64,000 nt of DNA from Candidatus Fervidifonticultor secundus (GTDB taxonomy: Bacteria > Sysuimicrobiota > Sysuimicrobiia > Sysuimicrobiales > Humicultoraceae). The stretch is taken from NCBI GenBank assembly GCA_031459385.1, contig JAVKIP010000002.1, forward strand, positions 64,355 through 128,354, written 5' to 3'. Shown here in pieces: positions 17,669-58,350 of this stretch (position 1 is its first letter; each line of letters starts with the position of its first letter). Position numbers and translations under genes: made by a program. The notes under the pieces are model-generated. The model saw only the letters and a list, made by a program, of their open reading frames with translations. It did not search any database and was not told the DNA's origin.

Positions 17669-17809
17669 GCGGGGTGGGCGCACGCGCTAGCGCGGGACGG
17701 CGGCACGGCAAAGGAACCGCGTTCGACGTGGTGAAACGCGTGTACCGACGGCTCGAACGCGCCTGAGGCTGCTGAGGGAGGAGAGGAGATTATGCAGCGC
17801 GAGGAGACT

Positions 17810-18946
17810 ATGCAGCGCATCGTCAGACTGATCGTGGTGGCATTGGGCATCGCAGCCATCGTGGTGCCGGCGACGCGCACCTGGGCCCAGCCGGCCATCG
17901 AGGACCGGCTGGTGATCATCACACCCGTGGCGCGGACCGTGGCTGACCCCACCGTGGCCGCGTTTCGCGACTTCGCGCGGCGGCAGTTCAACGTCGACGT
18001 GCGGGTGACCGTGGTCTCGGCCGGGACCCCCGTGGCCTACGGGCGCATCCGCGAGTGGGGAGGCCGGCCGGAGGCCGACATCTTCTGGGGCGGCGAGCCC
18101 GCGCTGTTCGACGATCTGGCCGAGCGCAGGCTGCTGGCGCTCCTGGAGCTGCCCGAGGCCGTGTGGCGGGAGATCCCCGCCGCCATCGGCACGCCCAAGC
18201 AGGTCCTGCTCAAAGACCCCCGGGGCTTCTGGGTCGGGTGCTGCCTGACCCCCTACGGCCTCGTCTATCACCCGCGGCTGTTGAAGCGGCTGGGCGTGGA
18301 GGCGATCCGCGACTGGGATGACCTGCTGGACTGCCGGTTGAAGGGCCAGGTCGCGCAGGCGACGCCCGACCGCTCCAGTTCGAACCACGCCTCGTACGAG
18401 GTCATCCTGCAGATGCACGGCTGGCAGAAGGGCTGGGAGTGGGCCCAGCGTCTGGGCGCCAACACCGGCATCTTCGTGGCCCGCAGCCGCGACGTGCCGA
18501 CGGTCGTCGCCAAGGGCGAGTTCGCCGTGGGCTTTGCGGTACCGGCGTACATGGCGTTCGAGGACGTGCTGGACGGACACGACCTGAAGTACGTGCATCC
18601 CACGGCGGCGTTCGTGACGCCCGAGCCCCTGGCCATTCTGGCCGGGAGCCGCAGCCCCCGGGCGGCCCGCGCCTTCATCCAGTACGCGTTGAGTGACGAG
18701 GGGCAGCGCGTCATGATGGCGCGCGGCCAGTACGGGATCACGCCCAAGCACCGGATGGAGGGGCCGGCGGGCTCGCCGCTGGCGCGCATGGCCGAGTTCG
18801 CGGGCATCAAGTCGTTCTTCGACCGGCCCGTGCGCAACGTCTACGACGACAACGTGGCCCAGCAGCGCTACAGTCTGGTCAACGATACGTTCCGCAAGCT
18901 GATCGTGGAACGGCATGCCGAGCTCAAGCGGCTGTACTGCCCGTAA
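17810..18946 (+). CDS. ABC substrate-binding protein, FbpA/AfuA (iron, thiamine, sugar-phosphate) family
   Basis: Signal peptide; PEADIFWGG, DWDDLLD, TPDRSSS, VAKGEFAVG, ARAFIQYALSDEGQ. Alternative start at 17792. Confidence 0.85.
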   Translation: MQRIVRLIVVALGIAAIVVPATRTWAQPAIEDRLVIITPVARTVADPTVAAFRDFARRQFNVDVRVTVVSAGTPVAYGRIREWGGRPEADIFWGGEPALFDDLAERRLLALLELPEAVWREIPAAIGTPKQVLLKDPRGFWVGCCLTPYGLVYHPRLLKRLGVEAIRDWDDLLDCRLKGQVAQATPDRSSSNHASYEVILQMHGWQKGWEWAQRLGANTGIFVARSRDVPTVVAKGEFAVGFAVPAYMAFEDVLDGHDLKYVHPTAAFVTPEPLAILAGSRSPRAARAFIQYALSDEGQRVMMARGQYGITPKHRMEGPAGSPLARMAEFAGIKSFFDRPVRNVYDDNVAQQRYSLVNDTFRKLIVERHAELKRLYCP

Positions 18947-19015: not shown

Positions 19016-20098
19016 ATGCAGGTTCGCCTGACCGACGTCGTGAAGCGCTTCGGCCCCGTGGAGGCCATGGCGGGCGTCTCCGTGACCATCGCCGACGGCG
19101 AGTTCTTCACGCTGCTGGGGCCCTCAGGCTGCGGCAAGACCACCACGCTGCGGGTGATCGCGGGGTTCTACGACCCGGATGCCGGCACCGTGCACTTCGA
19201 CGACGTGCTGATGAATGGCGTCCCGCCGGCCGAGCGCGGCATTGGCATCGTCTTCCAGAACTACGCGCTCTGGCCGCACATGACCGTGTACGAGAACGTC
19301 GCCTATGGCCTGCGCCTCAAACGCATCCCACCCGACGAGATCCGCCGCCGGGTCGTCGCGACCCTGGAGCAGGTCGGCCTCCAGGGGTTGGGCGACCGGT
19401 CCCCGGGCCAGCTCTCCGGCGGGCAGCAGCAGCGCGTGGCCGTGGCGCGGGCGCTGGTGCTGAACCCCCGGGTGCTCCTGCTCGACGAGCCGCTCTCGAA
19501 CCTCGACGCGAAGGTGCGCGCGCGGCTGCGCAGCGAGATCCGCCGCCTCCAGCAGGACCTGCGGATCACGACGGTCTACGTCACGCACGACCAGGAGGAA
19601 GCCATGGTCCTCTCCGACCGCATCGCGGTCATGGAGGCGGGCAGGATCCTTCAGATCGGGTCGCCGGTGGACCTCTACGAGCGGCCCGCCAGCCTGTTCG
19701 TGGCCGACTTCATCGGCACCAACAATCTCATTCCCGGCACCGTGGTAGCGTCCCGCGACGGCCAGACCGAACTGGAGACGCCGGCCGGTCTCCTGCGGGG
19801 GGTCGCAGGCCGGCCGCTCCCGCCCGGAAGCCGCGCCGTGGTGGCGGTGCGGCCCGAACACCTCGTCCTGCAGAGTGACGCCACGGGGCCCCTGGACGTC
19901 ACGCTCCGGGGCCGGGTGGTCCTCTCGCAGTACCTGGGCAACGTCGTCCGCTACGAACTGGAGGCCGGCGGCGGCGTCGTGCTGCTGGTGGACGTCCACG
20001 ACCCCCGTCGGCACCGGCTCCTGGCACCCGGCGCCGAGGTCACCGTGGGGTTCGCGGCCACCTCGGCGCTGGTCTTCCCCGAGGACCGGCGGTCGTGA
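19016..20098 (+). CDS. ABC ATP-binding protein, FbpC/PotA family with TOBE domain
   Basis: GPSGCGKT, FQNYALWPH, LSGGQQQR, LDEPLSNLD, YVTHDQEEA. Confidence 0.9.
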   Translation: MQVRLTDVVKRFGPVEAMAGVSVTIADGEFFTLLGPSGCGKTTTLRVIAGFYDPDAGTVHFDDVLMNGVPPAERGIGIVFQNYALWPHMTVYENVAYGLRLKRIPPDEIRRRVVATLEQVGLQGLGDRSPGQLSGGQQQRVAVARALVLNPRVLLLDEPLSNLDAKVRARLRSEIRRLQQDLRITTVYVTHDQEEAMVLSDRIAVMEAGRILQIGSPVDLYERPASLFVADFIGTNNLIPGTVVASRDGQTELETPAGLLRGVAGRPLPPGSRAVVAVRPEHLVLQSDATGPLDVTLRGRVVLSQYLGNVVRYELEAGGGVVLLVDVHDPRRHRLLAPGAEVTVGFAATSALVFPEDRRS

Positions 20099-21819
20099 CG
20101 CCGCCCGCGGTGGAAGCGGCACCCCTCCCCGCCGTCGCACGGCGATGGCGCGTGCCCGGCGTGGCGTGGGTCGTGCCGATCTATGCCTTCCTGTTCCTGT
20201 TCATCGTGTTCCCGCTGTGGCGCCTGTTCGCCGACGCCGTCTCCACCGACGAGGGGCAGTGGACGGTCCGGTTCCTGGTGGCCTTCGCCCGCGACGCCTT
20301 CTACCAGCGCGCACTGGCCAACTCCGTCGTGGTGGCTGCGGGCACCGTCGTCGGGTGCGCCCTGATCGGGTTCCTGGCCGCGTTCCTCCTGGTCCGGTAC
20401 GACTTCCCCGGCCGCGCGCTGTTCTCCTACCTGACCATGCTGCCCATTATCATGCCGCCGCTGGTGGGCATCATGGGCTTGGTCTTCATCCTGGGGCGGG
20501 CCGGCACGGTCAACGTGCTGCTCATGGACTACCTGGGGCTGCGGCAACCCGTCAACTTCATCTACGGCTGGCACGGGGTCCTGCTGGCCATGATCCTGCA
20601 CTACTTCCCCCTGATCACGCTCAACGTGGTCGATGGCCTGAGCAAAGTCGACGCCTCGATCGAGGAAGCGGCCGAAGCCGCGGGCGCCCGCGGGCTGCGC
20701 AAGATCGTCGACATCACCCTCCCGCTGGTCACCCCGGGGTTCATCTCGGGCGCCACGCTGGTCTTCATCTTGGCGTTTGCCGACTTCGCGACGCCGCTGG
20801 TGGTGGGCGTGCAGAACCTAATCGCCTCCCAAGCCTACCTGAACATCGTCCAGTTCATCGACCGGCGACTGTTCAAGATGGGCATCGTCATCGGCGCGCT
20901 GATGGGGGCCATGGCCATCGTCTTCCTCGTCGTGGCCCGGCGCGTGGTGGCCATGCGGGAGTACGCCATGGTGTCCTACCGCGCCGTCGAGCGCCGGACG
21001 CTGCGCGGTGGCTGGCGGTTCGCGGTGCCGGCGTTCTTCACCGCGGTGCTGACCCTGGCGTTCCTCCCGTACCTGGGCGTGGCGCTGGCGGCGTTCGGCC
21101 GCGCCTGGTCGCTGACGCCGTTCCCCACGCGCTTCACCCTGGCCCACCTCGACGCGGTGCTGCACCTGACGCCGATCTACGTCATCAATACTCTGCGGTG
21201 GAGCGCCCTGGCCGTGGTGATCATCCTGGCGGTGGGGGTACCGCTGGGGTGGGTGCTGGCCCGGAGCACGGTGCCCGGGCGGGGGCTGATGGACGCCATC
21301 GTCACGCTGGTCCTGGCGCTGCCGGGCACCGCCATCGGCATCGCCTACATCCGCGCCTTCCACTTCCCGCTGCCGCTGGTCGGGCTGGTCCTGAGCCGGC
21401 TGTGGATCATCATGCCGCTGGTGCTGGCCGTGCGCCGCATGCCCTACACGGTGCGGGCGACCTTCGCGGCCCTGCTGAACCTGCACCGCGCCATGGAGGA
21501 AGCCGCGGCGAGCGTGGGCGCCTCAGGGCTACGCACCTTCTTCGACGTCACCCTGCCCCTGATCTGGCGCGGCGTGCTGGCCGGCGCGCTCTTCTCCCTG
21601 ATGTTCGCCCTGCAGGAGGCTGCCGCGACGATCCTGCTGTTCCTGCCGGGCTGGGAGACGATGACGGTCGGGATCTTCACCTTCTATACGTCGGGCACGA
21701 TCGGGCAGGCCGCCGCCCTGGGCTTCGTGCTGATCCTGCTCTGCGCGGTCACGCTGTATGCCGTCTACCGGCTGACGGGCGCGCGCATGGGCGGGCTCTT
21801 CGGCGCGGGCGGCGGCTGA
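20095..21819 (+). CDS. ABC permease, FbpB/AfuB family (two fused TM domains)
   Basis: Two EAA loops (IEEAAEAAGA and MEEAAASVGA); about 12 TM segments. Confidence 0.9.
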   Translation: MTPPAVEAAPLPAVARRWRVPGVAWVVPIYAFLFLFIVFPLWRLFADAVSTDEGQWTVRFLVAFARDAFYQRALANSVVVAAGTVVGCALIGFLAAFLLVRYDFPGRALFSYLTMLPIIMPPLVGIMGLVFILGRAGTVNVLLMDYLGLRQPVNFIYGWHGVLLAMILHYFPLITLNVVDGLSKVDASIEEAAEAAGARGLRKIVDITLPLVTPGFISGATLVFILAFADFATPLVVGVQNLIASQAYLNIVQFIDRRLFKMGIVIGALMGAMAIVFLVVARRVVAMREYAMVSYRAVERRTLRGGWRFAVPAFFTAVLTLAFLPYLGVALAAFGRAWSLTPFPTRFTLAHLDAVLHLTPIYVINTLRWSALAVVIILAVGVPLGWVLARSTVPGRGLMDAIVTLVLALPGTAIGIAYIRAFHFPLPLVGLVLSRLWIIMPLVLAVRRMPYTVRATFAALLNLHRAMEEAAASVGASGLRTFFDVTLPLIWRGVLAGALFSLMFALQEAAATILLFLPGWETMTVGIFTFYTSGTIGQAAALGFVLILLCAVTLYAVYRLTGARMGGLFGAGGG

Positions 21820-21820
21820 G

Positions 21821-22630
21821 ATGCCCCATCCGCGGCCACGGCCGACGCGGCTGTACGCCGGGTACGCGTTCGATCTCGACGGCACCATCTACCTGGGCGA
21901 TGCGGCACTGCCGGGCGCGGCGCCCACGGTGGCCGCGCTGCGACAGGCCGGGGCCCGTGTCGTCTTCCTCTCGAACAACCCGTTGCGTACGCGCCAGGAG
22001 TATGCGGCCAAGCTCACCGCGCTGGGGATCCCCGCGACCGCCGACGACGTGATCAACTCGTCGTACGTCCTGGTGCGCCACCTGGCGGCGACGGCGCCCG
22101 GCGCAGCGCTGCTCGTCATCGGCGAGGAGTCGGTGAAGGCGGAACTCCGGGCGGCGGGCTTCGTCCTCACCGAGGCCCCCAGCCAGGTGGACTATGTCGT
22201 GGCGTGCTTCGACCGAACCTTCGACTACCGGAAGCTCAAGCTCGGCTTCGACGCCCTGCGGGCCGGGGCGCGCTTCATCGCCACCAACCGCGACCCGTAC
22301 TGCCCGACGCCCGACGGTGGCCTGCCCGACTGCGGAGCGATCATCGCGGCGCTGGAAGCCAGCAGCGGGCGCCGGGTGGAGACCGTGGTGGGCAAACCGT
22401 CGCCCATCACGGGACGGATGCTGCTCGAGCGGCTCGGCACCGCGCCCGCGCAGTCGCTGGTGGTGGGCGACCGGCTCGAGACCGACATTGCGCTGGGCGT
22501 GGCCACGGGCATGGCCACGGCCCTCGTGCTCACCGGCGTGACGACGCGCGAGGCAGCCCTCGCAGCGCAGCCGCGGCCCGACTACATCCTCGAGGGCATC
22601 GCCCAGGTGCTGCCGGAGTCCGACGGGTGA
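21821..22630 (+). CDS. HAD-IIA family phosphatase (NagD-like)
   Basis: FDLDGT, LSNN, ATN.D, GKPS, VGDRLETDI. Confidence 0.9.
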   Translation: MPHPRPRPTRLYAGYAFDLDGTIYLGDAALPGAAPTVAALRQAGARVVFLSNNPLRTRQEYAAKLTALGIPATADDVINSSYVLVRHLAATAPGAALLVIGEESVKAELRAAGFVLTEAPSQVDYVVACFDRTFDYRKLKLGFDALRAGARFIATNRDPYCPTPDGGLPDCGAIIAALEASSGRRVETVVGKPSPITGRMLLERLGTAPAQSLVVGDRLETDIALGVATGMATALVLTGVTTREAALAAQPRPDYILEGIAQVLPESDG

Positions 22631-23364
22631 GCCGGCCACAGGTGATCGCGCACCGGGGCGCCTCGGCGCAGGCGCCGGAGAACACGCTGGCCGCGTTCCG
22701 GCGCGCGCTCGACCTGGGCGTGGACGCGGTCGAGTTCGACGTGCACCTGTCGGCCGACGGCGAACCGGTGGTGCTGCACGACCCGGTGGTGGACCGCACC
22801 ACCGACGGCCAGGGGCTGGTGCGGGACCTGCCGCTGGCCGTGCTGCGGCGCCTGGACGCCGGCCGGTGGTTCGGGGAAGCGTTCGCGGGCGAGCGCATTC
22901 CCACCCTGGCCGAGGCGCTGGACCTGCTGCGTGGCGTGCGGGCGATCGTGGAGATCAAGAACGGGCCCGTGGCCTACCCCGGGATCGCCGCGCGGGCGGT
23001 AGCCGTGGCACGCGCGGTCGGACATCCTGCGGTTACGTTCTCGTCGTTCGACCATCCGGTGCTGCTCGAGGTGCGGCGCGCCGACCCCACCGCCGACACC
23101 GCTGCGCTGTTCATGGGCAGGCCGGTCGACCCCGGCGCGCTGGCTGCCGCGGCAGCGGCCTGCCGGCTGCACGCCCACTGGGCGTGGGTGACGCCCGAGT
23201 TCGTGCGCGAGGCCCACGCGGCGGGCCTGACGGTGGAGGTCTGGACGGTCGACGAGCCGGCGGCGATCGCACACGTGCTCCCGCTGGGGGTGGACGGCAT
23301 CATGAGCAACTACCCCGACCGGCTCCAGGCTGTCCTTGCCGGTCGCGAGGCGGCCGGAGGCTGA
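22627..23364 (+). CDS. Glycerophosphodiester phosphodiesterase (cytoplasmic, UgpQ/GlpQ family)
   Basis: IAHRGAS..APENTL.AF, EFDV, HD, EIK, WTVD, GVDGI.SNYPD. Confidence 0.92.
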   Translation: MSRPQVIAHRGASAQAPENTLAAFRRALDLGVDAVEFDVHLSADGEPVVLHDPVVDRTTDGQGLVRDLPLAVLRRLDAGRWFGEAFAGERIPTLAEALDLLRGVRAIVEIKNGPVAYPGIAARAVAVARAVGHPAVTFSSFDHPVLLEVRRADPTADTAALFMGRPVDPGALAAAAAACRLHAHWAWVTPEFVREAHAAGLTVEVWTVDEPAAIAHVLPLGVDGIMSNYPDRLQAVLAGREAAGG

Positions 23365-23371
23365 GACGGGC

Positions 23372-25036
23372 TCAGGGCGACGCCGCCTGCGCGGGCGGCA
23401 CCGCCGCCAGGGCTGCGTCGTCGCGGCGGCGGAGCGCCCGGTAGGCGTCCAGCTGGCGCGCGGTTTCCGCGTCGTCCCATCCCAGCACCCGCGCCATCAG
23501 CCGTGCCGCGCAGACGGCCGCCGCATCGGCAGCGCGCGCGTCGAGGACCGCCAGGCGCGTGCGCAGGTAGAGGCAGTCGGCCAGCGCCACGGCCTGCTCG
23601 GCCCGGCAGGCGTAGACGATCTCGGCGGCGACGTGCGGAAGGCCCTGCGCGAGCGGCGCGGCCAGCGACGGATCGTCGCGCACGAGCGCCGCGACCTCGC
23701 TGGCCAGGCTGCCGTAGGTCTCCAGGAGGTGCGCCCGCTGCTCGGGCGGCAGCCTGACCGCCTCGAGCGCCGCCCGCGCGTTGTCGAGCCCGGCGGCGCC
23801 AGCCAGGGGCAACGCGGCGGTCCGGCAGGGGCGCGCGGTGCCCTCACGCGCGGCGACCACGTTCACGGTGTCCTCGGCCATCTTGCGGTAGGTCGTCAAC
23901 TTGCCGCCGGTCACGGTCACCAGGCCACCGGGCGAGGTCACGACCAGGTGGTCGCGCGAGAGGGCGGCGGTCGAGCCGCCTGCGGTCGCGATCAAGGGCC
24001 GCACACCCGCGTAGGTCGCGGTGATGTCCACGGGCCGCAGCGGCCGCACCAGGTAGCGATTGGCGTGATCCAGCAGGTAGGCCACGTCGGCCGCCGTTGC
24101 CACCGGCGCCTCCAGGTCTCCGTCGTAGGGTTCGTCGGTCGTGCCCAGCACGAACCGTCCGCCCCAGGGCACGAGGAACGCCAGCCGTCCGTCGTCGGTC
24201 TCGGGGATCACGATGGCCGCGGTTGCCGCCACGGCCTGCGGGCGGAGCACCAGGTGCACGCCCTTGCTGTGGCGGATCCGGAACGACGGCGGGCCGTCCA
24301 GGGCGGCCACGCGCTCGGCCCAGATCCCCGTGGCGTTGACCACCGCCCGCGCCGGCACTTCGATCGTGCGGCCCGTGAGCCGGTCGAGCACCGCCGCGCC
24401 CCGGACCGCGGCGCCCTGCCGCAGCAGCGCGGTGACCTCGGCGTAGTTGACCGTGGTCGCTCCGTGCGCGCGGGCCGTCGCCAGCACCGCATGGGTCAGG
24501 CGCACGTCGTCCGTGCGGGCGTCGTAGTAGAGCAGCGCCGACCGCAGGCCCGCAGTGCGCAGGTCCGGTGCCAGCCGGCTCAGGTCGTCGCCCGAGAGGC
24601 GCCGGTGACGGAACGCGGGTGCGCGCGCGAACAGGTCATAAACGGTCAGACCGACCCGCACGCCCAGCGGCGCAAGCGGGCGCGCCAGGGCCGGCAGCCG
24701 CACGCCCAGCGGCCGACGGGCGCCAGCGTACAGGGGTACGACAAATGCCAGCGGGTGGACCAGGTGCGGGGCCAGGCGGAGCAGCCGCCCGCGTTCCCGG
24801 AGCGCGTCGCGCACGAGGCGGAGGTGCCCCTGGGGCAGGTAGCGGATGCCGCCGTGCACCAGCCGCGTGGACCGGCTGCTGGTACCGGCGGCGAAGTCCG
24901 CGCGCTCCACCAGGCCGACGCGGTAGCGGCGCGTGGCCGCGTCCAGCGCCACGCCCGCCCCCGTGATGCCCCCGCCGATGACGAGGAGATCCACGCCACC
25001 CGCCAGCACCCGGAACGCGTCATCGCGCGAGACCAT
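23372..25036 (-). CDS. glpD: FAD-dependent glycerol-3-phosphate dehydrogenase/oxidase
   Basis: IGGGITGAG, GTSSRST.LVHGG.RYL, NATG.W, SKGVHL, GGKLTTYR.MAE; GGAGG RBS. Confidence 0.9.
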   Translation of the reverse strand: MVSRDDAFRVLAGGVDLLVIGGGITGAGVALDAATRRYRVGLVERADFAAGTSSRSTRLVHGGIRYLPQGHLRLVRDALRERGRLLRLAPHLVHPLAFVVPLYAGARRPLGVRLPALARPLAPLGVRVGLTVYDLFARAPAFRHRRLSGDDLSRLAPDLRTAGLRSALLYYDARTDDVRLTHAVLATARAHGATTVNYAEVTALLRQGAAVRGAAVLDRLTGRTIEVPARAVVNATGIWAERVAALDGPPSFRIRHSKGVHLVLRPQAVAATAAIVIPETDDGRLAFLVPWGGRFVLGTTDEPYDGDLEAPVATAADVAYLLDHANRYLVRPLRPVDITATYAGVRPLIATAGGSTAALSRDHLVVTSPGGLVTVTGGKLTTYRKMAEDTVNVVAAREGTARPCRTAALPLAGAAGLDNARAALEAVRLPPEQRAHLLETYGSLASEVAALVRDDPSLAAPLAQGLPHVAAEIVYACRAEQAVALADCLYLRTRLAVLDARAADAAAVCAARLMARVLGWDDAETARQLDAYRALRRRDDAALAAVPPAQAASP

Positions 25037-25054
25037 CACGATGCCTCCGCGTGT

Positions 25055-25063
25055 AGCGTAGCA
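25055..25063 (-). promoter_or_regulatory. Putative extended -10 promoter of glpD
   Basis: Minus strand TGC-TACGCT just upstream of the RBS. Confidence 0.35.
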
Positions 25064-25187
25064 CGAGGATGCAGAGGAGCCCATCCGGCGCGTGCTGTAT
25101 CCCCCGGTCCGTGCCGTCACCCCGCGCCGCGCGCCGCACCCCGCCCGGCGCGGGGAGCCGCGGCCCGGCGCGGCTCGCGCGGCGCGG

Positions 25188-25216
25188 TTGCTGCGGGGGG
25201 TGCCGTCTGCTATCCT
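25188..25216 (+). promoter_or_regulatory. Sigma70-type promoter of ispH-der
   Basis: TTGCTG-17 nt-TATCCT with an extended TG. Confidence 0.55.
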
Positions 25217-25247
25217 GCGGACGACGGCCCGCGCAGGGAGGCACCGC

Positions 25248-26120
25248 GTGGAGATCGTGCTCGCCAGGCACCAGGGGTTCTGTGGCGGCGTCCGCCGGGC
25301 GGTGGAGATGTCCGAGGCCGCCGCGCATGAGAGCGGTGGCAAGGCCCAGACGTGGGGGCCGCTCATCCACAACCCGCAGGTGGTGGGCAGGCTCGAGGCC
25401 GCAGGCCTGGCGGTCGTCGAGGATCTGCACGACCTGGGCGGGGAGGCGTTCGTCGTCTCCGCCTACGGCGTGGAGCACGCCGTGCTGGACGCAGCCCGCG
25501 CGCGCGGCATGCGGATCGTGGACGCCACCTGCCCGGTGGTGATCCGCGCGCACTCGCTGGCCCACCGGCTGGTCGAGGAAGGCTACCAGGTCATCGTCGT
25601 CGGCGATCACGGGCACCCCGAGATGGTTACCCTGAAAGAGGTACTGGGCGAGAAGGTCACGGTCGTCCACACCCTCGAGGAGGCCCGGCGGGTCAAGCTG
25701 CGCGGAAAGATCGGCGTCATGTCGCAGACCACCCAGTCCATGGACAACTTCCGCGCCATCGTCGGCGACCTGGCCCTGCGGACCAAGGAACTGAAGGTGC
25801 TCAACACGCTCTGCCCGGCCATCACCGTGCGGCAGGAAGAGGCCGAGCGGCTGGTGGAGCAGGTAGATGCGCTGGTCGTCGTGGGCGGGCACCACAGCAG
25901 CAACACGACCCGCCTGGCCGAGATCGGACGCGCGCGGGGCCTGCCGACGTTCCACGTCGAGATCGCCGACGAGCTCGACCCGGCATGGGTACAGGGCCGG
26001 CGCCGGGTGGGCGTCATGTCCGGCGCGTCCACACCCGAGTGGATCATCGCCGAGGTGGTCCGCCGCCTCGAGGAGATCGGGGCGGAGCGCGAGGAGGCGG
26101 CTGCGTTGCCGGCTCCGTGA
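25248..26120 (+). CDS. ispH: 4-hydroxy-3-methylbut-2-enyl diphosphate reductase
   Basis: GFCGGVRRA, IHN, DATCP.V, HPE, QTT, TLC...RQ, SSNT, GASTP; GGAGG RBS then GTG. Confidence 0.9.
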   Translation: MEIVLARHQGFCGGVRRAVEMSEAAAHESGGKAQTWGPLIHNPQVVGRLEAAGLAVVEDLHDLGGEAFVVSAYGVEHAVLDAARARGMRIVDATCPVVIRAHSLAHRLVEEGYQVIVVGDHGHPEMVTLKEVLGEKVTVVHTLEEARRVKLRGKIGVMSQTTQSMDNFRAIVGDLALRTKELKVLNTLCPAITVRQEEAERLVEQVDALVVVGGHHSSNTTRLAEIGRARGLPTFHVEIADELDPAWVQGRRRVGVMSGASTPEWIIAEVVRRLEEIGAEREEAAALPAP

Positions 26121-28957: not shown

Positions 28958-29034
28958 CGGGCCGTAGCGCAGCTTGGTAGCGCGCCTGAATGGGGTTCAG
29001 GAGGTCGGCGGTTCAAGTCCGCCCGGCCCGACCA
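28958..29034 (+). tRNA. tRNA-Pro(GGG)
   Basis: Cloverleaf: acceptor CGGGCCG/CGGCCCG, anticodon stem CCTGA/TCAGG with GGG, TTCAAGT T-loop, encoded CCA. Confidence 0.95.
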
Positions 29035-43480: not shown

Positions 43481-43556
43481 GCGCCCGTAGCTCAGCGGAA
43501 AGAGCAACTGGCTTCGAACCAGTAGGGCGGGGGTTCGACTCCCTCCGGGCGCGCCA
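43481..43556 (+). tRNA. tRNA-Arg(TCG)
   Basis: Acceptor GCGCCCG/CGGGCGC, anticodon arm ACTGG-CTTCGAA-CCAGT, TTCGACT, CCA. Confidence 0.95.
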
Positions 43557-52638: not shown

Positions 52639-53994
52639 ATGACCGACCCGCCATCCCGTGCACCCGCGTCGTTCCACTACGCATGGATCGTGCTGGGCGC
52701 AGTCATGCTCGTCCTGTTGACCGCCTCAGGCGTGCGGTCGTCGTTCGGCATCTTCATCAGGCCCATAGAGGCCGACTTCCAGACCGGCCGCGCGGCGCTC
52801 TCGCTGGTGGCCTCGCTGTCCCTGTTCCTCTATGGCGCCGCCGGGCCGGTGGTCGGGTACCTGGCGGACCGGTGGGGCCCGCGCTGGGTACTCGCCGGGG
52901 CCGTAGCGCTCCTCGGGGCAGGGGCCGTCGCGTCGTCGTTCGTCACGAGCCTGTGGCAGGTCTACGTGACCGCCGGCGTGCTGACGGCGCTGGGCGCGGG
53001 TGGCGCGGCAATGTCCGTGGCGGCCTCCCTGGCGGCCCGCTGGTTCGATACCCGGCGAGGACTGGTGCTGGGCCTGGCCGGGGCGGGCATGGCAGGCGGC
53101 CAGCTGCTCATCGTGCCCCTGGTCATGGCCGTGACGCTGACGTGGGGCTGGCGCATGGGTTACCTGGGGCTGGGGATCGGGTTCCTCGCGGTCATCCTGC
53201 CCGTGGTGCTCCTGCTGGTGCGCAACGATCCCCAGGACGTCGGGCTCCGGCCGTTTGGTGCCGCCGCCGACGCGCGGCCGGTCACCGCCGCGTCGCGCGC
53301 CGCCGCGCGGACTGGAGTGCGCGACGCGGCCCGTACGGTGCCCTTCTGGCTGCTGGCCGGATCGTTCTGGGTGTGCGGCTACACCACGTCGGGGCTCGTC
53401 CTTACCCACCTGGTGCCCCACGCGACGGAGCATGGCTTCCACGCGGGTCAGGCGGCCCAGGCGCTGGGCCTCATGGGCGCGCTGAACATCCTGGGCACCG
53501 TGGGGTCAGGCTGGATCTGCGACCGATACGGCGCGCGCGCGCCGCTGGCAGCTTACTACCTGCTGCGGGGCCTGTCGCTGGTCTTCCTGCCCTTCGTGGG
53601 TACCGCGCCAGGGTTGTTTGCGTTTGCCGCCGTCTACGGGTTGAACTACATTTCCACGGTTCCGCCTACCACGGCTCTCACGGCCCAGGTCTACGGACGC
53701 TACTCGGTCGGTGAGCTCTCGGGCTGGATCTTCTTCTCCCATCAGATCGGGGCGGCTGTCGGCGCGCTGGTGGGCGGGGTCTTCTACGATCGGTTCGGGA
53801 ACTACGTGCTGGCGTTCCATTCCGCCGCGGCACTGGCGCTGGTCGCCGTGGTGATGGTCCTGGCGATCCGCCCCGAGCCGCTCGGAGGATCGGCCCGCCC
53901 GCCGCGCCCGCAGGCCGTGCCGGCGCCCGCGGGCGGTCGCCCGCACGGGGTGGTCGTGACCGACCGCCCGGTCGTGGTCCGCGCGAGGCGCTGA
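52639..53994 (+). CDS. MFS transporter (MCT/OFA-like)
   Basis: About 12 TM segments; G.LADRWGPR, WF..RRGL..G, GWICDRYG. Confidence 0.9.
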   Translation: MTDPPSRAPASFHYAWIVLGAVMLVLLTASGVRSSFGIFIRPIEADFQTGRAALSLVASLSLFLYGAAGPVVGYLADRWGPRWVLAGAVALLGAGAVASSFVTSLWQVYVTAGVLTALGAGGAAMSVAASLAARWFDTRRGLVLGLAGAGMAGGQLLIVPLVMAVTLTWGWRMGYLGLGIGFLAVILPVVLLLVRNDPQDVGLRPFGAAADARPVTAASRAAARTGVRDAARTVPFWLLAGSFWVCGYTTSGLVLTHLVPHATEHGFHAGQAAQALGLMGALNILGTVGSGWICDRYGARAPLAAYYLLRGLSLVFLPFVGTAPGLFAFAAVYGLNYISTVPPTTALTAQVYGRYSVGELSGWIFFSHQIGAAVGALVGGVFYDRFGNYVLAFHSAAALALVAVVMVLAIRPEPLGGSARPPRPQAVPAPAGGRPHGVVVTDRPVVVRARR

Positions 53995-54974
53995 TGGACG
54001 CGGCGTTCCTCTGGCCCTCGGCGCTGTGGCTGCTCTGGCTCGTGCCCGGGGTGGCGCTAGCCTACCGCCGGGCGCGTCGGCGGGCGCCCGCCGGCCAGGT
54101 CATGTTTCCGCACGTGGGCTTGCTGGCCGAGGCCGCGGGCCATGCGCGGCCCGTGCGCCAGCACCTGGCGACGGCGTTATTCCTGGCCGCGCTGGCGTTC
54201 GTCGTAACCGGGCTGGCCCGCCCCCAGGTACCCTTGCCGGTGCCGGCCGACCGTTCGGCGATCGTCCTGGCCATCGACATCAGCGGTAGCATGCGGTCCA
54301 CGGACGTGCTGCCCAACCGGCTGGCGGCGGCGCAGGAGGCGGCGCGCGCATTCCTCCGCACGGTGCCGGCCAGTGTCCGCGTGGGCCTGGTGAGCTTTGG
54401 CGGGTACGCGTCATTGCTCGTGCCGCCCACCACCGAGCGCCAGCCGCTGTTCGACGCGATCGACGGGCTGCGCTTCATCCGCCGGACCGCGATCGGCGAG
54501 GGGTTGCTGGAGGCGGTCGCCGCGCTTCCGGGGCGCGTGCGCGCCCATCCCGATGGTACGCTGGCGGCGCGGCCGCCCGGCCCGCTGCCTCCCGGCGTGG
54601 TGATCCTGCTCTCCGATGGCCGCAGCAACACCGGTATCGACGCGGTGCAGGCGGCGGCCATCGCCCGCCAGCAGGAGGTCGTCGTCTACACCGTCGGCGT
54701 GGGGCAGCCGCAGACTCCCGACAACGCCTGGACCATCGGTGGCCCGCTGGACGAGGCGGAGTTGCAGGCGGTGGCGCGGGAGGCCGGCGGCAAGTACTTC
54801 CGCGCCACCTCCGCAGCAGGTCTGCGGGAGACCTATGAGCGCCTCGCCCGCGCCGTCGGGTGGGAGCGTCGGCCGCAGGAAGTCACCGGAGTGGTGGGGC
54901 TGCTGGGGGGGCTCGCCCTCGCCGCGGCGGTGGCCGTCTCCGGCGTGCTCACGCACCGGCTGGGCGTTCCGTAG
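53994..54974 (+). CDS. Membrane-anchored VWA-domain protein (BatA-like)
   Basis: N-terminal F.WP..L / LARP domain; MIDAS DISGS, TAIG, LLSDG; C-terminal TM segment. Confidence 0.85.
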   Translation: MDAAFLWPSALWLLWLVPGVALAYRRARRRAPAGQVMFPHVGLLAEAAGHARPVRQHLATALFLAALAFVVTGLARPQVPLPVPADRSAIVLAIDISGSMRSTDVLPNRLAAAQEAARAFLRTVPASVRVGLVSFGGYASLLVPPTTERQPLFDAIDGLRFIRRTAIGEGLLEAVAALPGRVRAHPDGTLAARPPGPLPPGVVILLSDGRSNTGIDAVQAAAIARQQEVVVYTVGVGQPQTPDNAWTIGGPLDEAELQAVAREAGGKYFRATSAAGLRETYERLARAVGWERRPQEVTGVVGLLGGLALAAAVAVSGVLTHRLGVP

Positions 54975-55075: not shown

Positions 55076-55104
55076 TTGCGCGTGCGCCACCCGGAGGCTA
55101 TGCT
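55076..55104 (+). promoter_or_regulatory. Sigma70 promoter driving the riboswitch leader
   Basis: TTGCGC-17 nt-TATGCT, ending 19 nt upstream of P1. Confidence 0.6.
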
Positions 55105-55123
55105 GGAAACAGCACCGAGAGGC

Positions 55124-55269
55124 CGCAGCCTTCCGGGGCAGGGTGAGACGCTGGATGACGGCGTCAATTCCCGATCGGCGGTAACAGCCCGTGAGACCGG
55201 CGCGGAGCCGGTCGTGGCCCGGTGGAACTCCGGGGCCGACGGTAGAGTCCGTATGAGGTGAAGGCTGCG
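55124..55269 (+). ncRNA. FMN (RFN element) riboswitch, variant
   Basis: P1 CGCAGCCTTC/GAAGGCTGCG (10 bp). RFN blocks in order: GGGGCAGGGTGA, AATTCCCGA, GGCGGT, AGCCCG, CCGGTG..ACTCCGG, GCCGACGGTAGAGTCCG, ATG. Confidence 0.88.
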
Positions 55270-55298
55270 AGGTCCTGGCGCGTTCGCACCGCCCCGGG

Positions 55299-55328
55299 GG
55301 ACGCCCGAGTTCGGGCGTCTTTTGCTTT
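55299..55328 (+). terminator. Riboswitch expression-platform intrinsic terminator
   Basis: GACGCCCG-AGTT-CGGGCGTC followed by TTTTGCTTT, between the aptamer and the RBS. Confidence 0.8.
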
Positions 55329-55347
55329 GCGCCAGAAGGAGCCGACG

Positions 55348-56487
55348 ATGGTGGCTGGTACGCGTCGCACGACCGCCCTCCTGCTGGCGGGCCTCGGCCT
55401 GCTGTTGGCCCTCCCCCGGCCGGCGCCCGGCCAGGCGCTGGAAGATCGGCTGGTCGTGATGACCCCCATCCCGCGCGAGGTCGCCGATACCGTGGCCGAC
55501 CGCTTCGCCGAGCACGCGCGGCAGCGGTACGGCGCGCCCCTGCGGCCGACGCTGGTGTTCCTGGGCGGTCCCACGATGTATGCCCGCGTCCTGGAGTGGC
55601 GCGGCCGCCCTGATGCCGATCTGCTGTGGGCCAGCGAGGCTGAGGTGCTGGACGACCTCGTCAACCGTCGGCTCCTCGTCCTCCACGAGCTGCCCGAGGC
55701 GCTGGTTCGGGACGTCCCGCAGGCGATCGGCGGGCCCCGGGCGATCCCGTTGCGCGACGGTCGCGGCTACTGGATCGGGACCGCCCTGACGCCCGCTGGC
55801 ATCGTGTACCACCCACGGCTGCTGCGGCGCCTGGGCCTCGATCCGCCGCACGACTGGGACGACCTGCTCGACTGCCGCCTGCGAGGCCAGGTCGTGCAGA
55901 CCACGCCCGACCGCTCCGCGACGAACCACAGCTCGCTCGAGGTGATCCTGCAGCTCCGCGGCTGGCAGCGCGGGTGGGAGTGGGCCCAGCGGCTGGCCGC
56001 GACGACCGGCATCTACGTCACTCGTAGCCGCGACGTGCCGACGTTCGTGGCGCGCGGCGAGTTCGCCGTGGGCTTCGCCGTGCTCAGCTACATGGCGTTC
56101 CAGGAGGTGCTCGGCGGCCACGATATCCGCTTCGTGAGCCCGCCCTACGCCTGGATCTCGCCGGCGCCGTCTGCCGTGCTGGCCGGTGCCCGGTCGCCGC
56201 GTGCCGCCCGCGCGTTCCTGCAGTTCCTCCTCAGTGACGAAGGGCAGCGGCTCATGATGGCTCACGGGCTGTTTCCGATCGTGCCGCGCTTCAAGATGGA
56301 GGGCCCACCCGGGTCCGTCGCCGCGCAGGCCGCGACGTTCGCCGGCATGCGGTCGTTCTTCGACCGGCCCGTCCGGACGATCTACGACGACGACCTGGCG
56401 CAGAAGCGCTACCAGGAGGTGAATGAGCTCTACCGCAAGCTCGTCTTCGAGCGACACGACCAGCTGAAGCGGCTGCACTGTCCCTGA
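55348..56487 (+). CDS. Orphan FbpA/AfuA-family ABC substrate-binding protein under riboswitch control; paralog of 17810-18946
   Basis: AAGGAG RBS; signal peptide. Long stretches match the first SBP (DWDDLLDCRL.GQV, GWEWAQRL, RSRDVPT, GEFAVGFAV, SFFDRPVR, LKRL.CP). Confidence 0.85.
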   Translation: MVAGTRRTTALLLAGLGLLLALPRPAPGQALEDRLVVMTPIPREVADTVADRFAEHARQRYGAPLRPTLVFLGGPTMYARVLEWRGRPDADLLWASEAEVLDDLVNRRLLVLHELPEALVRDVPQAIGGPRAIPLRDGRGYWIGTALTPAGIVYHPRLLRRLGLDPPHDWDDLLDCRLRGQVVQTTPDRSATNHSSLEVILQLRGWQRGWEWAQRLAATTGIYVTRSRDVPTFVARGEFAVGFAVLSYMAFQEVLGGHDIRFVSPPYAWISPAPSAVLAGARSPRAARAFLQFLLSDEGQRLMMAHGLFPIVPRFKMEGPPGSVAAQAATFAGMRSFFDRPVRTIYDDDLAQKRYQEVNELYRKLVFERHDQLKRLHCP

Positions 56488-56551: not shown

Positions 56552-56627
<76 letters not shown>

Positions 56628-58263: not shown

Positions 58264-58350
58264 GCGGGCGTAGCCGAACTGGTAGAGGCGCCAGACTTAG
58301 GCTCTGGTCGGCGTGAGCCGGTGGGGGTTCGAGTCCCTCCGCCCGCACCA
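58264..58350 (+). tRNA. tRNA-Leu(TAG)
   Basis: Acceptor GCGGGCG/CGCCCGC, anticodon arm CCAGA-CTTAGGC-TCTGG, long variable arm, TTCGAGT, CCA. Confidence 0.95.

Follow-up and report, generated by a model that had tools for sequence, protein, structure and literature searches.

A variant FMN-fold riboswitch linked to vitamin B6 genes and to an orphan binding protein in Candidatus Fervidifonticultor secundus

According to PMC9997740, only PdxU and PdxU2/HmpT (COG4720, PF07155) and P5PA (COG1840, PF13531) have been characterised as B6-vitamer transporters in prokaryotes; pyridoxamine is given as a substrate of HmpT (PMC4860826). P5PA was reported by its authors in Pasteurellaceae only, and the P5PAB system borrows an ATPase (AfuC) encoded in another operon (PMC8427247). 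In Deinococci, the binding-protein gene ribY is monocistronic behind a flavin mononucleotide (FMN) riboswitch (PMC4418817). Orphan binding proteins thus have precedent. The locus considered here lies in a 64,000-nucleotide stretch of Candidatus Fervidifonticultor secundus, phylum Sysuimicrobiota (assembly GCA_031459385.1, contig JAVKIP010000002.1, positions 64,355 to 128,354), hereafter the window. It comprises an aptamer of the FMN fold, an intrinsic terminator and a single gene for a secreted substrate-binding protein (SBP), P0001 (Table 1). The first-pass annotation took the unit for an FMN riboswitch over a candidate new flavin-nucleotide uptake system. Comparison with relatives points elsewhere: the aptamer belongs to a subtype, here termed type B, and the best explanation of the comparative sequence evidence is that in this hot-spring phylum type B governs B6 acquisition, not flavin metabolism.

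Which genes stand behind type B aptamers? A signature pattern, allowed at most one mismatch, was scanned over 94 genomes of the GTDB phylum and matched 42 sites in 36 of them, all from one order, the reversed-pattern control giving 0 matches. By family, type B occurs in 19 of 33 f1 genomes, 16 of 22 f2 genomes, 0 of 23 f4 genomes and 0 of 12 f5 genomes. Orthologues of P0001, assigned by their coordinates, follow 16 sites, and pdxS-pdxT follows seven (508.6 bits for a representative PdxS, cut-off 395, and 235.7 bits for PdxT). Another 16 sites precede energy-coupling factor (ECF) S-components of PF07155, a class that rests on short peptide motifs, with Pfam scores of 121.7-137.7 bits in four representatives. 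The last three are cut by a contig end, leaving the gene unreadable (one in G019, an unpublished genome). At none of the 39 readable sites does type B precede a rib gene, a RibU homologue or another flavin gene. A metagenome scan gave 41 loci, some of which may share organisms with the genome set. Classified by short peptide motifs, 19 lead into a PF07155 S-component, 14 into pdxS and five into this binding protein; one locus was too short, and one was a chance match (31% G+C, without the aptamer core). The remaining locus has an AA_permease_2 family gene about 285 nt past the aptamer (L105:3-983, minus strand), a fourth partner known from this single case. Apart from the chance match, only the same high-G+C lineage was hit; since the L6 loop and most of P6 are fixed in the pattern, variants in other phyla could escape it. 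The sole biosynthetic operon behind type B is pdxS-pdxT (7 genome sites, 14 metagenome loci), and no gene related to thiamine pyrophosphate (TPP) was found behind type B sites. At four loci examined in sister genera (L052:230-1858, L053:296-1866, L057:354-1920 and L060:294-1851), the PF07155 S-component is followed by an AIR-synthase-related protein, similar to ThiL/HypE/SelD below all NCBIfam cut-offs, which is a candidate non-orthologous B6 kinase.

The canonical subtype, type A, has another set of partners. RibD and/or RibE motifs stand behind 32 of the 40 type A loci and PF12822 S-components behind seven (one of them, L034 in G010, from an unpublished genome); a single locus (L026) is unresolved. 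Compared with solved structures, one of the seven PF12822 proteins (L059) matches RibU (3p5n, E 7.7e-25; 5kbw, E 2.6e-24), and the sole match of the PF07155 S-component linked to type B is 4hzu_S (E 2.8e-19). The two subtypes also coexist. Three genomes (G043, G049 and G055) each carry type A ahead of RibU and type B ahead of a PF07155 protein, with a further type B ahead of pdxS in G049. The window's own genome (G000) has three RF00050 matches, of which the two outside this locus are type A and precede ribD. These two ribD loci (L001, G000:C8:10088-10243, plus strand; L002, G000:C46:3630-3776, minus strand) are near-syntenic, each consisting of an M28 peptidase gene, a small conserved protein, a type A aptamer and ribD; the pair stems either from duplication or from another strain present in the bin, the assembly having 5.5% contamination.

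Because pdxJ was found in 0 of the 94 phylum genomes, PdxST is the only known de novo B6 route of the phylum. The pdxS gene is present in 34 of 36 genomes of f4, f5 and f7, the families without type B, and in eight of 55 genomes of the type B families f1 and f2, counted besides G000, which itself lacks it. Seven of these eight, all but G014, have pdxS immediately downstream of a type B aptamer; in all 17 f4, f5 and f7 genomes covered by both searches, the gene is on a contig different from every RF00050 match. Type B precedes a transporter part in the remaining 29 type B genomes. In G000, which is 97.6% complete, pdxS, pdxJ and pdxH were not found, the single strong PF08543 kinase is a ThiD by score (357.7 bits vs 204.95), and the PdxK and PdxY models stay under their cut-offs; ribD is present. 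Judged by this gene content, the organism looks like a B6 auxotroph and flavin prototroph, and may need the phosphorylated B6 cofactor itself. A change of ligand would predict such a regulon, such a phyletic pattern and single genomes in which each subtype has its own gene set, and all three point to B6. With moderate confidence, type B is thus read as a variant riboswitch over a vitamin B6 regulon, with pyridoxal 5'-phosphate (PLP) as its likely ligand and P0001 as a binding protein for phosphorylated B6; the ligand of the RNA, the ligand of the protein, the OFF logic and the partner permease are what we infer within this reading.

The RNA itself is a 144-nt aptamer matching RF00050 over model positions 1-138 of 138, above the gathering score of 66.2 bits (cmscan, Rfam), and the earlier assignment to the FMN class holds at the level of the fold. 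Subtypes were delimited by aligning aptamers with the Rfam consensus and parsing all those retrieved. In type A, J4/5 reads NGA, J6/1 reads GAUGG[G/A]A and P1 is closed by a C-G pair; in type B, J4/5 reads UGG (GGA in a few), J6/1 reads UAUGAGG followed by an unpaired U, and the closing pair of P1 is lost. The Rfam consensus is upper-case at the G preceding the A of J6/1 and at the GA of J4/5. Near-invariant neighbours in the FMN model are therefore changed in type B: U replaces the G before A99, G replaces the A after G62, and a mismatch stands where P1 closes. The 40 type A loci of the phylum have both the G before A99 and the A after G62. An outside sample, 27 RF00050 matches in 26 of 121 Pseudomonadota genomes, shows J6/1 beginning with GGAU in 26 of 27 and with GUAU in 0 of 27, and J4/5 as AGA in about 24 of 27. 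Among 46 distinct type B sequences the junctions do not vary, while compensatory changes occur at 18 of the 40 predicted pairs, located in P1, P4 and the extension of P2; type B is judged from this to be a structured RNA under selection. A low Rfam score was rejected as a type B marker, since the type A copies of f5, with their long insertions, score low for that reason too (41.7-64.7 bits). Rfam assigns the type B element to no other family.

The association of RNA and gene is conserved. The first-pass annotation had proposed to check whether riboswitches accompany orthologues of the binding protein, and a comparison of aptamer and orthologue coordinates in 61 related genomes, G000 included, shows that they do: an orthologue (identity at least 69%) is present in 16, and in 15 of these, one being the unpublished G019, it is immediately preceded on its own strand by an RF00050 match of E 1e-6 or better. 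Seven of the 15 aptamers reach the gathering score; the others score 59.6-65.8 bits, with one at a contig end at 43.5. In the sixteenth genome (G005; L009/L065, G005:C4:81500-83300) the aptamer is decayed, with 26.6 bits over about 100 nt and one signature mismatch, and the riboswitch may have been lost in that species. None of the 25 paralogue-class matches (55-66% identity) in the 61 genomes adjoins an RF00050 match. In a midpoint-rooted tree of 119 homologues, 26 proteins of at least 68% identity form one clade (support 1.0), which is linked to the riboswitch and is sister (support 0.98) to a 60-protein clade that includes the window's paralogue. Duplication and repurposing of an SBP, as originally suggested, fits this topology; the flavin scavenging attached to that suggestion is not the best-supported outcome. 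The loci of betaproteobacterial homologues (L014-L016; 49-51% identity) contain no RF00050 match at the gathering score, and a search of two genomes, G094 and G095, gave none either.

Between the end of the aptamer and the terminator lie 31 bases. The terminator, a G+C hairpin of 8-9 bp followed by UUUU, is absent from the output of a simple terminator consensus scan; it is accepted because the folds show it and relatives conserve it. A hairpin with UUUU stands 53-68 nt downstream of most type B aptamers, ahead of all three gene kinds, and the entire module (aptamer, GGCGC/GCCCC linker, hairpin and U-run) is common to the three. When the truncated transcript is folded, the GCCCC stretch of the linker pairs with the 5' end of the aptamer, which makes it, on modelling, a candidate for an alternative, ligand-free pairing.

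If the leader works as an OFF riboswitch that terminates transcription on the FMN-aptamer fold, plentiful ligand, most likely PLP or a close phosphorylated B6 vitamer, would lock helix P1, the terminator (55300-55323) would form and the mRNA would end ahead of the gene. Scarce ligand would permit read-through and synthesis of a secreted binding protein of the AfuA/P5PA type. This protein would capture the phosphorylated vitamer outside the cell and pass it on to an ABC permease and ATPase from another locus, the likeliest pair being the one next to the paralogue (19016-21819), in an organism that itself is presumably unable to make B6.

The gene downstream of the leader runs from an ATG to a stop at 56487 and encodes a hydrophobic, signal-like N-terminus, with a predicted mature protein of 351 aa (residues ~29-379). 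Pfam assigns SBP_bac_11 (63.7 bits) and SBP_bac_6 (58.0 bits). The nearest solved chains by sequence are P5PA (6wce, E 2.8e-15) and AfuA (4r72, E 3.6e-12). An AF2 model (mean pLDDT 86.3) has the class II periplasmic binding fold; its top Foldseek matches are AfuA (4r72, E 1.3e-21), the glucose 6-phosphate (G6P)-binding VcA0625 (8x1a, 2.1e-21) and P5PA (6wce, 5.0e-21), with target-normalised TM scores of 0.80-0.84. Ferric-ion binders of the FbpA types rank under these three in both searches. The P5PA ligands given in PMC8427247 were mapped through a phmmer alignment, with an offset of 38 between the numbering of the chain and that of the paper, checked at five motifs. The phosphate site is kept: S147-G148-T149 and S183 of P5PA correspond to S190-A191-T192 and S227 here, and G36, a hydrophobic contact beside the phosphate ligand T37, to G73. 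All 26 clade members have S190, S227 and G73, with T or S at position 192. By sequence and model, P0001 is placed in the organophosphate-binding AfuA/P5PA subgroup (cluster D, PF13531/PF13343), the first-pass annotation having named the FbpA/AfuA family. With the phosphate site kept and conserved across the clade, its ligand is very probably a phosphate ester; which ring the ester carries cannot be read from homology, and binding of PLP is suggested by context. Filing P0001 as P5PA proper was rejected, since the ring ligands are replaced and the identity of about 19% compares with a threshold of above 65% used by the P5PA authors. Positions fixed differently between the riboswitch-linked and paralogue clades include 146, 247, 267 (Y vs A) and 269 (W vs F).

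No permease or ATPase adjoins the gene, as noted from the outset: a VWA/BatA gene lies upstream of the aptamer and a tRNA gene downstream of the SBP gene (Table 1). The order SBP gene, tRNA recurs in six of seven orthologous loci retrieved (L004-L009, L011), L007 being the one without a tRNA match; four tRNA genes occur in the window. Of the unit described in the first-pass annotation, the aptamer, terminator, GGAG motif and secreted SBP gene were all recovered; a sigma-70 scan found no site at ~55076-55104, where the promoter had been placed. In one metatranscriptome run (X4, contigs only), 55944-56143 is matched identically by a contig of 200 nt and the leader by none, too sparse a record to argue either way about transcription or attenuation.

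The paralogous binding protein opens an ABC operon with the candidate shared partners, an ATPase and a fused two-domain permease. The operon ends with a HAD-IIA phosphatase, whose match to the phosphoglycolate/PLP-phosphatase family stays under the cut-off, and a GDPD phosphodiesterase, and a GlpD/GlpO-like gene lies on the opposite strand. The paralogue probably takes up glycerophosphodiesters or glycerol 3-phosphate (G3P), in agreement with the operon type proposed earlier. An orthologue of the fused permease (identity at least 76%) is present in 14 of 16 genomes with the riboswitch-linked binding protein, and G000 has several other fused permeases; on both counts, the pairing of P0001 with this permease is put forward as a candidate.

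Table 1. Features of the riboswitch locus and of the paralogue operon, in window coordinates.
Feature	Coordinates	Strand	Basis or remark
FMN-fold aptamer, type B	55125..55268	+	RF00050, 70.0 bits, E 8.4e-14
J4/5, UGG	55215..55217	+	type B signature
J6/1, UAUGAGG	55252..55258	+	type B signature
Unpaired U	55259	+	type B signature
Linker, aptamer to terminator	55269..55299	+	GCCCC stretch complementary to aptamer J1/2 GGGGC
Intrinsic terminator	55300..55329	+	hairpin 55300-55319, U-run from 55320 (UUUU 55320-55323); minimum free energy (MFE) folds and sequence
Ribosome-binding site GGAG	55338..55341	+	6 nt ahead of ATG; sequence
Orphan substrate-binding protein P0001, 379 aa	55348..56487	+	translation, Pfam
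VWA/BatA protein gene	53994..54974		upstream of aptamer
tRNA	56552..56624		downstream of P0001
tRNA	28958..29031
tRNA	43481..43553
tRNA	58264..58347
Paralogous binding protein, 58% identical	17792..18946	+	first gene of ABC operon
ABC ATPase, candidate shared partner	19016..20098	+	ABC_tran and TOBE_2; NCBIfam PhnT2/PotA/UgpC-like, all below cut-offs
Fused two-domain ABC permease, candidate shared partner	20095..21819	+	BPD_transp_1 twice
HAD-IIA phosphatase, GDPD phosphodiesterase	21821..22630, 22204..23364	+	end of paralogue operon
GlpD/GlpO-like gene	23372..25372	-	opposite strand to paralogue operon

Several observations weigh against a B6 regulon under a PLP-sensing RNA. The cmscan alignment and 57 distinct type B sequences all have the FMN contacts named in PMC6298564 (A48, A85, A99, G10, G11, G32, G62 and G84). 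When the contact numbering of PMC6298564 and PMC12219259 is mapped onto the cmscan consensus, a mapping that is itself inferred, G10, G11, G12, G32, G47, A48, G62, C83, G84, A85, G93 and A99 are all kept. The type B changes adjoin these contacts and do not fall on them; because the contacts are kept, the RNA could, as far as its sequence tells, still bind FMN. The constrained and truncated folds gave no convincing antiterminator, the pairing of the aptamer 5' end with GCCCC being weak (-94.5 vs -107.8 kcal/mol). On the protein side, P0001 shares only about 19% identity with P5PA and AfuA, the pyridine-ring ligands Y103 and H203 are replaced by A146 and S247, and Q267, a hydrophobic contact with PLP, by P310. 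The fused-permease orthologue was not found in two of the 16 genomes (G007 and G012). PF07155 also holds transporters of the thiamine precursor hydroxymethylpyrimidine (HMP), and PF13531 is a broad family. The lack of pdxS in 15 of 16 carriers of the binding protein is little above background, 27 of 33 f1 genomes lacking it anyway. Near-complete f1 genomes (G004, G009, the unpublished G010, G017, G018 and others) have neither pdxS nor pdxJ nor type B, so that another B6 route must exist in f1. Lastly, all type B examples come from one phylum, and being related, they make the counts overstate independence.

It is possible, if unlikely, that the aptamer senses FMN canonically and that the binding protein scavenges FMN, flavin adenine dinucleotide (FAD) or another flavin through the permease and ATPase of its paralogue. 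Besides the retained contact nucleotides, such a scheme draws on the window copy's score above the gathering threshold and on a pocket in which the phosphate site is kept, the small A146, S247 and P310 in place of the Y, H and Q of P5PA would leave room for a larger ring, and the clade-specific aromatics Y267 and W269 stand where the paralogue has A and F. The gathering score, however, is reached by fewer than half of the upstream aptamers (7 of 15). The regulon tells against flavin more directly, with no rib gene or RibU homologue behind any readable type B site, type A ahead of these very genes in the same genomes, and a bona fide pdxS behind type B. Moreover, G000 has ribD, and hence less need of flavin than of B6 uptake. 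Flavin, the ligand favoured in the first-pass annotation, is thus not the best reading.

Alternatively, type B might sense FMN, perhaps with a shifted set-point, over a B6 regulon, and the protein bind PLP while being switched by flavin status. This is a little less probable again. It would accommodate both the conserved FMN contacts and the B6 nature of the regulon, and PMC4418817 lists an 'FMN riboswitch' with 'no obvious role' ahead of the PLP synthase gene yaaD of Thermaerobacter marianensis. However, no metabolic reason for such a link is evident: PdxH, the FMN-dependent salvage enzyme, was not found in G000, and a conserved split that tracks gene function in genomes with both subtypes is what a ligand change predicts. 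Flavin sensing would be odd in T. marianensis too, which the S4 dataset of PMC4418817 gives without a riboflavin pathway or known riboflavin transporter. Both entries hint that the phenomenon extends further.

Least probable is another ligand for the RNA, the protein or both, such as pyridoxine or pyridoxamine phosphate (PNP, PMP), HMP or thiamine phosphate, or a sugar or polyol phosphate, with an indirect B6 link in part of the regulon: the HMP transporters in PF07155, the ThiL/HypE/SelD-like protein downstream of the S-component, the amino-acid-permease-family gene at one metagenome locus and the binding of sugar phosphates by AfuA (PMC8427247) speak for it, but the only biosynthetic operon behind type B is pdxS-pdxT, with no TPP-related gene there, and Rfam gives the element no other family.

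The B6 reading therefore remains the preferred one, and both characterised families of B6 transporter listed in PMC9997740 occur behind type B, along with the PLP synthase. More tentatively, it extends to the proposal that type B is a natural class of PLP riboswitch, evolved from the FMN aptamer with its pocket re-shaped around the retained phosphate site and controlling pdxS-pdxT and two kinds of B6 importer, and that P0001 represents a second family of PLP receptor, unrelated in detail, outside Pasteurellaceae. In two reviews from 2022, PLP is one of the near-universal coenzymes for which no riboswitch has been validated (PMC9971707, PMC10043782). A full-text search for the term PLP riboswitch returned no report of one, and among the papers listed on riboswitches with pdxS or pyridoxal, or on 'FMN riboswitch' with pyridoxal, none reports such an element as far as titles and the beginnings of abstracts show. 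About 10% of genomes are said to depend on B6 salvage, with importers mostly unknown and transporters a major gap (PMC9997740). The locus offers a candidate for both gaps, in the form of the 144-nt RNA and the 351-aa mature protein. Should FMN turn out to be the ligand, flavin control of the synthesis and uptake of PLP would itself connect two vitamins in a way not described before.

How does the locus compare with described systems? With the FMN riboswitch (RF00050), type B shares the full-length six-helix match, the junction architecture, the FMN contacts and a terminator-type expression platform. It differs in the changed invariant neighbours of the pocket, the re-written 3' half of J6/1 and the lost closing pair of P1, as well as in its regulon, which consists of pdxS-pdxT, this binding protein and S-components of the PdxU/HmpT type and in no case includes rib genes or RibU. 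The rare FMN variants of subtypes 1 and 2 (Atilho et al., 2019; PMC6298564) likewise combine the FMN fold with altered conserved nucleotides and partners outside flavin biosynthesis, and a changed ligand was deduced there by the same logic. As described in PMC6298564, however, these variants differ in kind: the guanosines that bind the phosphate and ribityl groups have become adenosines, whereas type B keeps them, and the variants do not accept FMN but bind lumichrome or lumiflavin, stand ahead of efflux pumps and in some cases are ON switches, whereas type B partners are B6 genes.

Among transport proteins, P5PA of Actinobacillus (6WCE; PMC8427247) and AfuA (4R72-75) share with P0001 the class II fold, the best sequence and structure matches and the phosphate-binding Ser/Thr residues, and P5PAB resembles it in having no ATPase of its own. 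Differently from P5PA, P0001 has A, S and P at the ring-ligand positions Y103/H203/Q267, no adjoining permease, and riboswitch control. The Deinococci ribY/RibXY system offers the same arrangement, in which an FMN-fold riboswitch stands over a single ABC binding protein and the permease is encoded elsewhere, although RibY is a flavin-binding member of the NMT1/ThiY-like nitrate/sulfonate/taurine family (PMC4418817) and P0001 belongs to the AfuA/FbpA cluster. The PdxU/PdxU2 (HmpT) S-components (PF07155; 4HZU) are absent at the window locus, where their bearing is through the regulon only, but in sister genera they stand behind the same type B riboswitch.

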